This document shows positions 10,385 through 35,815 of a stretch of 64,000 nt of DNA, piece after piece. A program made the translations under genes and the position numbers. The notes under the pieces are model-generated. The model was given only the letters and a program-made list of their open reading frames with translations, was not told the origin of the DNA and made no database searches. The DNA lies in NCBI GenBank assembly GCA_963730405.1, contig CAVSRW010000017.1, positions 20,955 to 84,954 on the forward strand. Direction: 5' to 3'. Numbering within the stretch: position 1 is the stretch's first letter; every line of letters starts with the position of its first letter. The DNA is from an uncultured Gaiellaceae bacterium. GTDB lineage: Bacteria; Actinomycetota; Thermoleophilia; Gaiellales; Gaiellaceae.

Positions 10385-10816
10385 GTGTTCTGGCTCGACA
10401 CCGGCGCGGAGATGGAGCTCGAGGAGCTGCTCGAGGAGGGGCCGGTGCTGCTCGTCTTCTACCTCTTCGACTGGTCGCCGACCTGAAGCCAGGAGCTGCG
10501 CCTCCTGCGTGACAGGCGGCCGGAGTTCGAGCGGGCGGGCGTGCGCGTCTTCGGCGTCTCGCGCGACTCGCACTGGTCGCACCGGGCCTGGAAGGACGTC
10601 CTCGACGTGGACGTGCCGCTGCTCTCCGACTGGAACGGCTCCCTGGCCAAGCGGTTCGGCGCCGCGCGCGTCTGGCGCTGGATGGAGCAGGTGCCGCGGA
10701 GGAGCGCGTACCTGGTCGGCGAGGACGGTACGGTGCTCGGATCGTGGCGGTACGCGGACTCGGACGTGCCCGACTTCGACGAGCCGCTCGCGGCCGCGCG
10801 GGCGTTGCGGGACTAG
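10385..10816 (+). CDS. AhpE/Bcp-like peroxiredoxin with in-frame TGA (10484-10486) at the peroxidatic Cys position; candidate selenoprotein
   Basis: Same frame on both sides of the TGA: VFWLDTGAEMELEELLEEGPVLLVFYLFDWSPT-TGA-SQELRLLRDRRPEFERAGVRVFGVSRDS..PLLSDW. The track lists only 10541..10816. See findings. Confidence 0.65.
10500..10520 (+). other. candidate bacterial SECIS hairpin for the peroxiredoxin UGA
   Basis: GCC(U)CCUG-CGUGA-CAGG(C)GGC has 7 bp with one mismatch. It starts 14 nt after the UGA, and the apical loop contains GU at +22..+26. Confidence 0.4.
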
Positions 10817-12240
10817 CCGCCGCCCTCTATCTCGGGGCCGGCCTCCTCGCCACGTCGCCGGCCGTCTTCGAGACCGACCGCTTCCTCGGCTACGGCGAGC
10901 CACAAGCCGGCCGGGTCACGCCCGGCGACCACCTGCAGACCATCTACGGCCTCTGGCTGCCCGGGCACCAGCTCGCGCGCGCGGCGGCGCCTTGGCTCGA
11001 CCCCTACAGCTTCCAGCCGGAGCTCGAGCCGCGCGTGAACTTCGCCGCCTGGCCGTTCGCGGCGGTCTACGGCCCGCTGCAGGCGCTGCTCGGAACCGTC
11101 GCCGGCTGGAACGTCTTCGTGCTCCTGACCTACGTCGGCGCCGGCGGCTTCGCCGCGCTCTGGCTGCGCGCGCTCGGGCTCGGACTCGGGCCGGCACTCG
11201 TCGGCGGGCTTGCGTTCGCGCTCGCGCCCTACCGGGTCGCCCAGTCGACCGGCCACCTCCTCGGCCCGATCTCGATGCTGCTGCCGCTCGCCCTCTACGG
11301 CGTCGAGCGCCGACTGGTGCTGCTCGCGGCCGCCGCGCTCGCGTCGATCCCGCTCTCGGGCCAGGTCCACCTCGCCCTCGGCGCGATTCCGTTCGTGCTC
11401 GCGTACGCGCTCGCGCGGCGGCGAACGACGCTCGGGCTCGTCGCGGCAGCAACGGGCGCCGCGGCCGGCCTGCTCGTGTGGGCACTCTCGCTGCGCGACA
11501 CGGTCGAGCGGCCGTACGCCGAGGTCGAGCGCTACTCGGCGAGCGTCGGCGACTTCCTCGCCCGCGACCCGGGCGACTTCGAGCAATTTGTCTACCTCGG
11601 CTGGCTCCTCCCGCTCGCCGCCGTGGCCGGCGTCGGGTGCTTGTGTTTCAGAAACACAATCTCCTCCGGGCGCCGGCTCGCGCTCGTGCTCGGGCTCGGC
11701 GCGCTCGTTCCCTGCCTCCTCGCCCTCGGCTCGAATCTGCCCGGATACGGCTTCATCTGGAGGAATACGCCCCTGCACTCGACCCGGGTGCCCGAGCGGA
11801 TGCTCCCGATCGCGTGCCTCTGCCTCGCGGCGCTGGCGGCGGTCGCGGTCGCTTGTGTTTCAGAAACACAAGCCGCCGTCCGCGCCCGCGCGGTCGTCGC
11901 CGCCGCGGTCGTACTGGTCGCAGCCGACCTCTGGGTGCCGCTCTACGACCCGCTCGTCGCGGACGAGGACAACGCCGTCTACGACCGGGTCGCGGAGGCG
12001 CCCCCGGGACGGCTGCTGGAGCTGCCGGTGCTGCCGCCCGACGCCTACGCCGGCAGCGTCTACCTCTACTACTCGATGCAGGCGCCGCGCGAGCGGCCGC
12101 TCGGCTACGCGACCTCGGCGCCGCCGGAGGCGTTCCTGGTCGCGCGGCAGCTGCCGGAGCGGGCGGAGGAACTGGGTGTCAGCGTCGTCGTCGAGTACCG
12201 CGACGGCAGCCCCGAAAGGTTGCGAAGCAGTGAACGATGA
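10744..12240 (+). CDS. polytopic membrane protein of unknown function (possibly glycosyltransferase-C-like)
   Basis: 498-aa ORF with many hydrophobic helices and uniformly GC-rich third positions. The basic N-terminus precedes the first TM helix. It overlaps the peroxiredoxin 3' end by 73 nt. It carries two copies of the AT-rich palindrome in-frame. Confidence 0.7.
   Translation: MAVRGLGRARLRRAARGRAGVAGLAAALYLGAGLLATSPAVFETDRFLGYGEPQAGRVTPGDHLQTIYGLWLPGHQLARAAAPWLDPYSFQPELEPRVNFAAWPFAAVYGPLQALLGTVAGWNVFVLLTYVGAGGFAALWLRALGLGLGPALVGGLAFALAPYRVAQSTGHLLGPISMLLPLALYGVERRLVLLAAAALASIPLSGQVHLALGAIPFVLAYALARRRTTLGLVAAATGAAAGLLVWALSLRDTVERPYAEVERYSASVGDFLARDPGDFEQFVYLGWLLPLAAVAGVGCLCFRNTISSGRRLALVLGLGALVPCLLALGSNLPGYGFIWRNTPLHSTRVPERMLPIACLCLAALAAVAVACVSETQAAVRARAVVAAAVVLVAADLWVPLYDPLVADEDNAVYDRVAEAPPGRLLELPVLPPDAYAGSVYLYYSMQAPRERPLGYATSAPPEAFLVARQLPERAEELGVSVVVEYRDGSPERLRSSER
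11641..11659. repeat. AT-rich perfect palindrome copy R1 (TTGTGTTTC-A-GAAACACAA; flanks gc/tc)
   Basis: Read directly. The 9-1-9 palindrome has 6 G/C of 19 in a very GC-rich background. Translated in-frame as CLCFRNT. Confidence 0.95.
11851..11873. repeat. AT-rich perfect palindrome copy R2 (GCTTGTGTTTC-A-GAAACACAAGC)
   Basis: Read directly. The 23-bp palindrome is perfect. Translated in-frame as ACVSETQA. Its centre is 212 bp from the R1 centre. Confidence 0.95.
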
Positions 12241-33730: not shown

Positions 33731-34425
33731 TCGGGTCGCCGCGCCGGCACGTGGAGGAGTGCGAGTCGACGCAGCTCCTGCTCGGGCCGGACGATCCGGA
33801 AGGGGCGATCGCGACGACCGACCACCAGACCGCCGGCCGCGGCCGTCGCGGCCGGAGCTGGGTCGAGGCGCCCGGGACGGCGGTGCTCGTGTCCGTTCTG
33901 CTGCGGCCGCCGCCGGAGCGCGTCGCGCCGCAACTCTCGCTCGTCGGGGGCCTCGCGGCGGCCATGGCGGCCGAGGACGCGCTCGGACTGGCGGCGCAGA
34001 TCAAGTGGCCGAACGACGTCATGGTGAACCGGCGGAAGATCGCAGGCGTGCTCGCCGAGGCGCGGGACGGGATCGTCGTACTCGGGATCGGGATCAACGT
34101 CAACCAGAAGCGCGAGCAGCTGCCGCTCGATGCGCGCGTGCCCGCCGCGTCCCTGCGGACGGTCGACGGCCGCGAGCGCGACCGGGAGCAGGTGCTCGAC
34201 CTGCTGCTCGCCCACCTCGACCGGCTCTACGGCGCGTGGCGGGAAGGCGGCCTCGACGCCGTCTACGAGGATCTCGGCGCACGCGACTTCCTCCGCGGCC
34301 GCCGGGTCACGGTCGACGGAGCCGCCGGCACGGCGCAGATGATCACGCGCGACGGCCGCCTCGCCGTCGAGACCGACTCAGGCCCGATCGAGGTCGAGAG
34401 CGGCGAGGTCGCGTTCGAGCGCTGA
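33727..34425 (+). CDS. birA: biotin--[acetyl-CoA-carboxylase] ligase (no N-terminal HTH)
   Basis: HQTAGRGRRGRSW..KWPNDV..KIAGVLAE. GTGA overlap with fdhA. The 3' end overlaps convergent mobA by 48 nt. Confidence 0.88.
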   Translation: MIGSPRRHVEECESTQLLLGPDDPEGAIATTDHQTAGRGRRGRSWVEAPGTAVLVSVLLRPPPERVAPQLSLVGGLAAAMAAEDALGLAAQIKWPNDVMVNRRKIAGVLAEARDGIVVLGIGINVNQKREQLPLDARVPAASLRTVDGRERDREQVLDLLLAHLDRLYGAWREGGLDAVYEDLGARDFLRGRRVTVDGAAGTAQMITRDGRLAVETDSGPIEVESGEVAFER

Positions 34426-34968
34426 CAGCTCCTCGGGCGTGTTCGCATTCGCGAGCAGCCGTGGGTCTGCGTCGACCCGGCGCGGGTTGACGCCGCGGAG
34501 CGACCAGTCGCCGGATGCCAGCCTCCGCTCGAGCTCCGGCAGATCGGTGCGGGCATAGGCGCCCGGCAGCGGCCCCGTCTGCGTGACGGCGCGACGCTCG
34601 GCCAGCTCTCGCAGCAGCGACGGCGTCACGAGCGGGCAGTCGACCGGGAGGAAGACGGCCATCTCGGTCGCAGCCGTCCGGAGCCCCGCGATCACGCCGA
34701 CGAGCGGTGCCCGGGGCTCGGCCGGCTCGACGGCGACGTCGAAGGGCAGCTCGAGGTCGCCCTTGCCGACCGCGAGCCTCTGCGGGAACGCCTCGCCGAG
34801 AATGCGCCAGGCGCGCTCCGCGAGCGTCTCGCCGGCGAAGAGCGCGAGCGCCTTCGGCGACCCGAAGCGCGTCGACGCGCCGCCGACGAGCAGCACCCCG
34901 GTGCAGGCCGAGACTTTGTGTTTCAGAAACACAAGCGTCCGCCCCGCGGCGGCCAACCGCATGACCAT
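34378..34968 (-). CDS. mobA: molybdenum cofactor guanylyltransferase
   Basis: GVLLVGGASTRFGSPKAL..PVDCPLV motifs. The start is uncertain: ATG 34968 or 34962 lie inside a hairpin, and GTG 34932 lies inside palindrome R3. Confidence 0.8.
   Translation of the reverse strand: MVMRLAAAGRTLVFLKHKVSACTGVLLVGGASTRFGSPKALALFAGETLAERAWRILGEAFPQRLAVGKGDLELPFDVAVEPAEPRAPLVGVIAGLRTAATEMAVFLPVDCPLVTPSLLRELAERRAVTQTGPLPGAYARTDLPELERRLASGDWSLRGVNPRRVDADPRLLANANTPEELSALERDLAALDLDRA
34916..34936. repeat. AT-rich perfect palindrome copy R3 (TTGTGTTTC-A-GAAACACAA-GC; left flank ct)
   Basis: Read directly. Lies in the mobA 5' region and translates as VFLKHK on the minus strand. Confidence 0.95.
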
Positions 34969-34986
34969 GCGGATCCGCGGAGCGGA
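34938..34986 (-). promoter_or_regulatory. nested GC-rich hairpin enclosing both candidate mobA ATG codons
   Basis: Outer stem TCCGCCCCGCGG / CCGCGGAGCGGA pairs at 11 of 12 positions. Inner stem is CCGCATG / CATGCGG. Both CATG arms are the ATGs at 34968 and 34962. Confidence 0.5.
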
Positions 34987-34992
34987 AGAGGC

Positions 34993-35015
34993 GCTTGTGT
35001 TTCAGAAACACAAGC
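34993..35015. repeat. AT-rich perfect palindrome copy R4 (GCTTGTGTTTC-A-GAAACACAAGC)
   Basis: Read directly. Begins 2 nt after the fdhD stop. Its centre is 79 bp from the R3 centre. Confidence 0.95.
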
Positions 35016-35017
35016 TC

Positions 35018-35815
35018 TCACGCGACCACCCGCCACGCCTCCGTGTAGACGTTGAGCGAACCGCCGCGGACGAAGCCGCAGAGGGTGATCCCGCGGTCGG
35101 CGGCGAGCTCGACCGCGAGCGACGAGGGCGCGCCGACCGCGACGAGCAGCGGGCAACCGGCGACGGCGGCCTTCTGGACGAGCTCGAACGAGAGGCGGCC
35201 GCTGACGCAGAGGATCGAGTCCGCGAGGGGCAGCAGCCCGTCGAGGAAGGCGCGGCCGAGCACCTTGTCGAGTGCGTTGTGGCGCCCGACGTCCTCACGG
35301 ACGCAGAGTAGGTCGCCCGCGGCGGAGAAGAGCCCGGTCGCGTGGAGACCGCCTGTGGCCTCGAATGCCTCCTGGGCGCCGCGCAGCAGGTCGGGGAGCC
35401 GGCCGACGAGCGTGGCCTCGACCTGCAGCGTGCTCTCGATCCGAGGCGCCTCGACCGCGATCGCCTCCAGAGCGCCCTTGCCGCAGACGCCGCAGGAGGA
35501 CGAGGTGTAGAAGCTCCGCCGCAGACGGTCGACGTCGGCGCCGGGCGCCTCGACCTCGACCGTGTTCGCGGCGAGATCGTCGGGCACGCGCGCCGCGAGC
35601 GGCCGCAGCCCCTCGGAGAGGCAGAACCCGATCGCCAGCTCCTCGTCGTGGCCGGGCGTCCGCATCGTCACGGCCACGGGAACGCCGCCGATCCGGATCT
35701 CCAGCGGCTCCTCGACCGCGACGAGGTCGCCCGTCTCACCGCCCGGCACCCGCGTCACCCGCACACGGGCGGTGGTGTGAGCGGGCGTTCTCACGTGCGC
35801 AAGCGTACAACGCAA
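35018..35815 (-). CDS. fdhD: formate dehydrogenase accessory sulfurtransferase
   Basis: EEPLEIRIGG..SSSCGVCGK..GGLHA..DVGRHNALDKV..SGRLSFELVQKA. The start is TTG 35815 or GTG 35794. Confidence 0.9.
   Translation of the reverse strand: MRCTLAHVRTPAHTTARVRVTRVPGGETGDLVAVEEPLEIRIGGVPVAVTMRTPGHDEELAIGFCLSEGLRPLAARVPDDLAANTVEVEAPGADVDRLRRSFYTSSSCGVCGKGALEAIAVEAPRIESTLQVEATLVGRLPDLLRGAQEAFEATGGLHATGLFSAAGDLLCVREDVGRHNALDKVLGRAFLDGLLPLADSILCVSGRLSFELVQKAAVAGCPLLVAVGAPSSLAVELAADRGITLCGFVRGGSLNVYTEAWRVVA

Follow-up and report, generated by a model that had tools for sequence, protein, structure and literature searches.

A conserved, mostly paired palindromic site in Gaiellaceae genomes and a small orphan protein as its candidate reader

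How does an AT-rich perfect palindrome come to stand twice inside one coding sequence of a GC-rich genome, and is it read by anything? This question was raised by a 64-kb stretch of contig CAVSRW010000017.1 from an uncultured Gaiellaceae bacterium (G+C ~72%; the whole stretch is called the window), in which the 19-mer TTGTGTTTCAGAAACACAA was found exactly at four positions, 11641-11659, 11853-11871, 34916-34934 and 34995-35013. No fifth copy was detected in the window with up to 3 mismatches allowed, and the 19-mer was counted 0 times in 100 dinucleotide-preserving shuffles of the window. The first two copies were located in an open reading frame (ORF) for a polytopic membrane protein (10744..12240, plus strand, start codon uncertain), which gave no family match in Pfam or NCBIfam. 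Copy 1 (TTGTGTTT-CAG-AAACACAA) is read in phase 0 as LCFRNT and copy 2, 212 bp from copy 1, in phase 2 as CVSETQ; both belong to the sequence type called A below, and they form a homotypic pair in two loops after transmembrane helices. The preliminary description of this stretch had proposed a repeated dyad-symmetric element that is read through in frame, and the four exact positions and the two peptides confirmed it. Its expectation of more copies beyond the window was also borne out, and no described element with this 19-mer was found in a literature search or in Rfam. The literature held nothing on palindromic elements in Gaiellales, nor on REPINs (hairpin-forming doublets of repetitive extragenic palindromic, REP, sequences) and REP-associated tyrosine transposases (RAYTs) in Actinobacteria. 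The evidence given below supported well the conclusion that the palindromes have a function, that selection acts strongly on their sequence, and that a dedicated trans-acting factor reads them.

The constraint was revealed by comparison of the membrane gene among relatives. In nine orthologous loci the palindromes at site 1 and site 2 were 1.00 and 0.97 identical, compared with 0.85, 0.90 and 0.68 for the flanking codon positions 1, 2 and 3 of the same loci. These nine loci had been found through the exact 19-mer, which guaranteed at least one perfect copy in each, while the protein-based sample (the query and 120 homologues of at least 75% identity) was free of this ascertainment. Both exact peptides were present in 62 of the latter 121 proteins, and the remainder carried variants of the same length at the same two positions; type A was found at site 1 in 74 of the 115 typed homologues. 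The codons TTG, TGT, AGA and ACA were kept within the palindrome, in an ORF whose third positions are ~85% G+C. The near identity of the palindromes against 68% at the neighbouring third positions indicated selection on the DNA sequence itself, and the rare codons, the nucleotide identity and the presence of the same 19-mer in unrelated genes indicated that conservation of the peptide follows from conservation of the DNA. The preliminary description would have taken the same residues in orthologues as a sign of an ordinary conserved coding sequence; such residues were found, but it is the DNA that is held constant, and the sequence is therefore not an ordinary coding one.

The loops of the host gene that bear the sites are variable and rich in arginine, and each follows a transmembrane helix. 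Homologues with 67% identity or less to the membrane protein lacked both motifs and were ~6 residues shorter at each place, a count that is uncertain because the loops vary at both sites, and the sites thus look like old short insertions. One homologue (P0059) carried CVSETQ at both sites and an aberrant stretch, AGCCRSSPCWASAACVSETQSSSG, ahead of site 1, which looks like the result of two nearby frameshifts on either side of the palindrome, or of a misassembly at this place.

The exact 19-mer was scanned across one genome per prokaryotic species, with 8-kb stretches as the result. At least 115 stretches contained it and, two apparent chance matches aside (a Clostridium and a Verrucomicrobia record), they belonged to about 35 metagenome-assembled genomes (MAGs), each a Gaiellaceae or Gaiellales species, which came from many projects and assemblers. 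A few carrier MAGs were labelled merely Actinomycetota or Actinomycetes and one Chloroflexia. In this last, an 'uncultured Chloroflexia' bin (L023, CAVSAP010000006.1), the doublet had almost the same flanks as a locus from Gaiellaceae (L034), so that either the label of the bin or the placement of the contig in it is probably mistaken. Outside Gaiellales, exact matches were single copies in Clostridium aminophilum (L062, 282-300), a Verrucomicrobia MAG (L021, 6785-6803) and a viral contig (L239, 987-1005); the usual GAGC/GACT extension was missing from the flanks in L021 and L062, and all three were taken as chance occurrences. A phage origin was rejected, the viral contig of 51% G+C being the one chance match. 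Assembly, vector or linker artefacts were rejected too, because MAGs of many independent projects and sequencing technologies share the motif at orthologous positions.

When up to 3 mismatches were allowed, 192 copies were collected from the scanned loci and the window, including 172 exact ones. The extended consensus was GA(GC|CT)-TTGTGTTT-CWG-AAACACAA-(GC|AG)TC, after which the sequence is rich in pyrimidines. Two earlier suggestions on the flanks and one on the centre had to be revised on this basis. The 11-1-11 extension by GC on both sides was true of the copies at 11853 and 34995 only, the flanks being GC/TC at 11641 and CT/GC at 34916. The suggested insertion of 19+2 bp with a duplicated GC was not upheld, as the left flank is GC or CT and the right flank GC or AG, which extends the palindrome in inverted form; the left and right variants are chosen independently, and a direct duplication of the target is therefore absent. 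The central A on the plus strand was seen in all four copies of the window but was not general (T in 98 and A in 92 of the 192 copies).

Placement was analyzed with gene calls that were a GC3-based approximation in the loci. Sixty-one of the 192 copies were intragenic, flanked to left and right by strong coding signal, and they used all three stop-free phases: CVSETQ in 32, LVF(Q/L)KHK in 20 and LCFRNT in 9. Phase 0 with a T centre was never seen among the intragenic copies; as it makes a TGA stop there, the central A is forced in this phase. The host genes were unrelated housekeeping genes, among them those for anthranilate synthase (TrpE), TilS, acyl-CoA ligase, an ECF-type ABC ATPase and a DegT-type aminotransferase, as identified from translated sequences. 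TrpE was confirmed against solved structures, and its palindrome fell in a linker that could not be aligned with them. Another 34 copies started 2-20 nt past the stop codon of the incoming gene, and sites also occurred between genes of one operon (lipB-lipA, thiD-thiL and fdhD-mobA). Neither convergent nor divergent gene pairs were favoured at the sites. That the palindrome, with a purine-rich flank ahead of it, might provide GTG or TTG as a start codon was rejected, since downstream genes had no phase preference (28/25/24).

Most copies were paired, at centre-to-centre distances of 58-60, 69-70, 76-93, 212, 228, ~390-408 and 591 bp, and the spacing of 212 bp belonged to the membrane gene, in 10 loci. 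A CRISPR array was rejected on account of the pairs (plus one triplet), the mixed orientation of the centre and the many copies inside ORFs. A second independent cluster was found in 4 of 113 8-kb chunks, and the window holds 2 clusters in 64 kb, from which some tens of clusters per genome were estimated, about one per 30-110 kb; the chunk count points to roughly one per 100 kb. On Mb-scale contigs the clusters stood at scattered coordinates.

The sites were then found to fall into discrete dialects, A to E, which were read from DNA and also decoded from peptides. The outer arms TTGTGT/ACACAA are constant and symmetric changes are found near the centre: type A is TTGTGTTT-CWG-AAACACAA, type B TTGTGTTG-NNN-CAACACAA, type C TTGTGTCT-GAT/ATC-AGACACAA and type E TTGTGTTC-CWG-GAACACAA, while type D, TTGTGTTAC-N-GGAACACAA, is asymmetric. 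Over 32 distinct variants, positions 7/13 were T:A in 17, C:G in 14 and mismatched in 1, and positions 8/12 were complementary (T:A, G:C or C:G) in 23; positions 9-11 were free outside type A, and the centre was free. This pattern is compatible with a stem of 8 bp closed by a triloop, and equally with a symmetric dimer that contacts two half-sites. When metagenomes were scanned for type C, 43 high-G+C loci of the same architecture were obtained, with spacings of 59-60, 69-71, 212, 390 and 591 bp; for some of them the orthologous locus in other genomes is of type A. Hybrid sites were also seen, B/C in L129 (748-766, TTGTGTTG…AGACACAA) and C/A in L087 (2302-2320, CTGTGTCT…AAACACAA), and these could be intermediates of a dialect switch, or mixed dimers could be what they attract.

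Partner sites nearly always had the same dialect. Homotypic alleles made up 107 of the 115 typed membrane-gene alleles (AA 68, DD 15, BB 13, CC 9 and EE 2), against 43% expected from the site frequencies, and the 212-bp spacing was unchanged across A-, B- and C-type alleles. In asymmetric pairs the partner sites were mutually reverse complementary (L011, L102 and L116). On the membrane-gene tree the dialects were scattered, CC and BB alleles often being nearest to AA at ~9-10% amino-acid distance, and in-place switches of dialect have been numerous. Transfer of gene segments was not supported as the route, because the inter-site segment was on average no more alike within than between dialects, although a weak signal for it remained in nearest-neighbour counts on this segment. 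Conversion of A to C takes four to five substitutions per site, and the switch is not explained by ordinary mutation; templated conversion, very short recombination patches and hybrid half-site intermediates are candidate routes. One dialect per genome was rejected: MFD10007.bin.1.245, MFD01275.bin.1.196 and MAG VFV62 each have both A- and C-type sites, and in L102 a type A and a type D site are separated by 4 kb.

A candidate for the reader came from the pairs spaced ~390-408 bp, which bracket a small conserved ORF for an orphan protein of 110-127 aa, here named F42. One site stands ~70-90 nt upstream of its start codon and the other in its last codons, so that the gene ends are encoded by the palindrome (…CVSETQ, …LVSDRHKP and …LVLKQHKP). 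The F42 genes lie, for example, at 2118-2543 in L044, 9910-10384 in L241, 9914-10333 in L238 and 9915-10333 in L240. They form two paralogous loci and three subfamilies, and each subfamily has sites of its own dialect at either end of the gene. F42-A is found near rhodanese and PALP genes with type A on both sides (L044, L082, L055 and L241); F42-C near Na/Ca exchanger, AP_endonuc_2 and GluRS genes with type C (L130, L157, L159, L235 and L238); and F42-B shares the locus of F42-C with type B on both sides (L240, the one gene examined at the DNA level). The putative recognition helix varies by subfamily (PSYPH(V/I)RRLV, RRPGYHAVRD and PRPSYHTIRE), the motif listed for F42-A being PSYPH(V/I)RRLV, for F42-C PRPSYHTIRELV and for F42-B AAWELGLRRPGYHAVRD.

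The link between subfamily and dialect was strict in comparison with the membrane gene. The type-A peptide CVSETQ ended 111 of 120 F42-A homologues, and a switched dialect was found in 0 of the 120, whereas site 2 of the membrane gene had one in 46 of 121; conversely, type A was carried by 0 of 120 F42-B/C homologues against 69 of 121 at that site (Fisher P < 1e-15 for these contrasts, shared ancestry ignored). In MFD10007.bin.1.245, MFD01275.bin.1.196 and MAG VFV62, C-type sites surrounded F42-C despite A-type dispersed sites. The F42 homologues found were close relatives only, every source-named match being Gaiellaceae. A confident AlphaFold model (predicted local distance difference test score 87.5) gave four helices in a helix-loop-helix-long-helix layout, in which a conserved loop, G-x-x-R-P-S-Y, joins two helices, the second of which continues as a long helix and packs against the C-terminal helix. 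As modelled, F42 is all-helical and possibly helix-turn-helix (HTH)-like. Two further conserved elements were observed around the gene: a second inverted repeat (GTCACGGAATCGTGAC, with variants) downstream of the first palindrome and ahead of the F42-C start (L238 9945-9975, also L130, L159 and L235), and GGCAGGCACGCT immediately before the start codon in both A and C paralogues.

The explanation to which we lean, with confidence about evenly balanced, is that the palindromes are lineage-wide dyad-symmetric recognition sites read by a dedicated, lineage-restricted protein, with F42 as the best candidate. That the trans-acting factor is F42, acting as a dimer that binds duplex DNA, is plausible from the sequence comparisons. 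Gaiellaceae would keep the sites at some tens of fixed positions, coding and non-coding, mostly as same-dialect pairs; F42 is the predicted binder, perhaps as a dimer on duplex DNA. The pair in the membrane gene would be bound by one F42 species, and perhaps bridged by it, the coding sequence merely tolerating the sites in two loops. If F42 is the binder, bridging by one protein species would account for the homotypic pairing. The sites may first have been introduced by a copy-and-paste or short-insertion process. A more specific form, in which paralogous small DNA-binding proteins, each with a dialect of its own around its gene, and homotypic pairs rewritten in place by a templated or conversion-like process make up a new kind of chromosomal 'site and reader' system, is rather doubtful for the present. 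In it, the dispersed sites would number tens, some of them within essential genes, and the rewriting would leave the host gene otherwise intact.

Several observations weigh against reading by F42. Its fold had no significant match among solved (best E = 1.2) or viral (best E = 0.17) structures, and its sequence had none in Pfam, NCBIfam, PHROG, PADLOC or among PDB sequences, so the HTH-like label is drawn from a pattern only. The presence of F42-A together with F42-B/C was not established for any one genome. A 19-bp AT-rich palindrome is implausible by point mutation in coding DNA of 72% G+C, and distant homologues lack it, which points to mobile or templated seeding of the sites and fits a REP-like element equally. 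Pure duplex-DNA binding does not require the stable long-hairpin doublets or the reverse-complementary partners of asymmetric pairs. Finally, shared ancestry is left out of account in the statistics, and it was by the exact 19-mer that the loci were picked.

The doublets were examined at the second pair of the window, which is located not within a gene body but at a junction of minus-strand genes. Type A copies 3 (34916..34934) and 4 (34995..35013) lie 79 bp apart in a module (34904..35025) and flank a GC-rich inner hairpin, CCGCATGGTCATGCGG, within 34935-34994. Upstream is fdhD (35018..35815, minus strand; PF02634, E = 5.8e-64), with copy 4 placed 4 nt past its stop codon (35018-35020), and downstream is a mobA-like gene (34378..34968, minus strand; PF12804, E = 1.5e-21), with copy 3 at its 5' end or in its leader. 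The start of mobA is ambiguous (34898-34968): the longest ORF begins at ATG 34968, between the palindromes, and the MobA-like domain begins at residue 24 only. The palindrome at 34916 may accordingly be coding, as LVFLKHK if ATG 34968 is the start, or leader. As a single strand, the doublet forms one long hairpin (-73.5 kcal/mol, z = -8.9). The same build, with a GC-rich inner inverted repeat between two palindromes, was common to 47 short doublets (50-93 bp) of related genomes, and in the three that were folded (-53, -64 and -73.5 kcal/mol, z = -8 to -10) the partner palindromes pair into a duplex of ~40-45 bp. An inner-hairpin loop (C)ATGGTT(R)C recurred at many non-orthologous loci (L054 6279-6317, L023 3750-3788, L024 420-459 and ~20 further doublets). 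The inner ATG as a general gene start was rejected, being perhaps true for mobA, since the frame in L054 soon stops past the second palindrome.

These doublets bring forward the main rival, a REP/REPIN-like or miniature inverted-repeat transposable element (MITE)-like mobile hairpin, to which we assign a real but minor share of probability. Single-stranded DNA hairpins would be copied by a transposase with the doublet as the mobile unit, the intragenic copies would be tolerated in-frame insertions, and the F42 gene would be one more locus or an accessory factor. Identical dispersed copies in discrete families are expected of such an element, and so are doublets of 58-90 bp that fold into hairpins of ~45 bp (-53 to -73 kcal/mol), covarying stem positions around a free triloop, the strong enrichment outside genes and just past stop codons, the absence of sites from distant homologues with ~6 extra residues in carriers, and a gene flanked by its own repeats in each family, which is the REP/RAYT hallmark. 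The mobile hairpin is thus better than duplex binding by F42 on the origin of the sites and on the long-hairpin doublets. No transposase was found for it: in 0.93 Mb around 121 site clusters, tblastn with approximate RAYT and IS200 TnpA queries gave a best E of 0.65, no HUH...Y motif was found in six-frame translations, and the flanked gene encodes an all-helical protein of 110-127 aa with no known transposase fold. Direct target duplication is also missing. It is worse, too, on the low copy number of tens per genome, on the lack of decayed copies in the window and on the near-perfect conservation at orthologous positions across species. The REP or MITE likeness suggested by the preliminary description was hence a fair analogy for the hairpin doublets and the flanked cognate gene, but no RAYT or IS200 partner came with it.

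The three other readings are less likely than reading by F42 or a mobile hairpin. That the element acts in the transcript, where the hairpin (8-bp stem and triloop, extended by the flanks) or the duplex of a pair would serve as a processing or stability signal, such as a target of RNase III or another endoribonuclease or a 3' stabiliser after stops, we consider unlikely. The palindrome would give the same hairpin from either transcribed strand, many sites stand 2-20 nt past stops or between the operon genes named above, doublets form near-perfect duplexes of ~40 bp, and asymmetric partners are mutually complementary. But no Rfam family matched the window at gathering thresholds (the doublet gave only meaningless microRNA-precursor matches, E >= 0.06), a terminator-like U tract is absent, G-U-compatible variants were not enriched, cleavage within essential coding regions would be costly, and structure alone fails to explain one sequence everywhere or dialects tied to a protein subfamily. 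An intrinsic terminator was rejected in particular, as the element has no T tract, an AT-rich stem and many copies within genes; in 34600-35300 no terminator-like site or U/T tract was found, and at the fdhD-mobA doublet no promoter consensus.

A classical operator of the Fur, DtxR/IdeR, TetR or Rex/CRP class governing a regulon, as first suggested for the window copies, appears highly improbable. The 9-1-9 dyad geometry, the TTGTG...CACAA ends that resemble Rex sites and one pair at the redox-related genes fdhD-mobA speak for it. The Rex site is TTGTGAA-N4-TTCACAA (18 bp), and the spacing here is one bp off; the IdeR site, TTAGGTTAGGCTAACCTAA, has 10 of 19 positions in common with the Gaiellaceae 19-mer, and the half-site is unlike the IdeR and Fur consensus. 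Moreover, one third of the sites lie within ORFs, the neighbours are unrelated housekeeping genes without a common function, divergent promoters are not preferred, no regulator of these classes was found adjacent to the sites, and the bracketed gene encodes an orphan protein that is none of these regulators. The least probable reading is a molecular-drive signal like a DNA uptake sequence (DUS), in which biased uptake and recombination would conserve the motif, since the exact sequence across species, the dialects switched in place without linked haplotypes, the coding copies in tolerated frames and the paired sites are met by a density of about 1 cluster per 30-110 kb, by the non-palindromic nature of known uptake sequences and by several dialects in one genome, particular ones tied to particular loci.

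If the sites are indeed read by F42, a little-studied but abundant soil lineage (Gaiellaceae, Thermoleophilia) would bear genome-wide, ultra-conserved protein recognition sites that take precedence over codon choice and amino-acid sequence in housekeeping genes, and a candidate reader family of unknown fold class with natural specificity variants (A, B and C) would offer a model for the co-evolution of protein-DNA specificity. The coordinated, repeated switching of pairs in place may indicate an undescribed homogenising mechanism. The motif is in addition a sharp taxonomic marker, and it calls for caution with gene callers and with 'conserved peptide' readings in these proteins.

Among known systems, the DUS of Neisseria and the uptake signal sequence (USS) of Haemophilus share with the Gaiellaceae sites exact cross-species motifs, lineage dialects, coding tolerance and frequent inverted pairs after genes. 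DUS and USS have a density of roughly 1 per kb. The density of the Gaiellaceae sites is about 100-fold lower, with 4 copies (2 clusters) in 64 kb; their motif is itself palindromic, and coexisting dialects are tied to loci. Rickettsia palindromic elements (RPEs) are alike in being in-frame repeats in housekeeping genes that add residues in tolerant loops. They differ in length (about 100-150 bp and tens of residues, against 19-27 bp and ~6-9 residues) and in divergence, RPE copies being diverged and Gaiellaceae copies mostly identical, and we know of no cognate bracketed gene for RPEs. The REP/REPIN-RAYT system is similar in its dispersed short palindromic repeats of several families inherited vertically within a lineage, in doublets that form one long hairpin (47 doublets here, three of them folded) and in a cognate gene flanked by its own family's repeats. 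The flanked gene of Gaiellaceae differs in encoding an orphan protein instead of an HUH Y1 transposase, and in having, at a genomic G+C of 72%, a palindrome that is AT-rich and without mismatch. In contrast to the extragenic confinement of REPs, 61 of 192 Gaiellaceae copies stand in frame inside ORFs, and the sites number tens of copies with near-perfect orthologous conservation and in-place dialect switches.

The systems parS/ParB, NBS/Noc (Noc-binding sites), matS/MatP and SBS/SlmA (SlmA-binding sites) also use short palindromes at few to tens of conserved positions, often intragenic, and each has a dedicated dimeric DNA-binding reader; the Gaiellaceae reader is a candidate only. The half-site GTTTC/GAAAC recalls parS, with 1 nt between GTTTC and GAAAC instead of the 4 nt in the 16-bp parS consensus TGTTTCACGTGAAACA. 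Canonical parS was found neither in the window (up to 3 mismatches) nor in the 241 loci, an absence that is uninformative, and a lineage-specific parS was rejected for want of support from the window and these loci. What sets the Gaiellaceae sites apart from parS, NBS, matS and SBS is the pairing of sites, the long-hairpin doublets, the dialects and the bracketing specific to each F42 paralogue.

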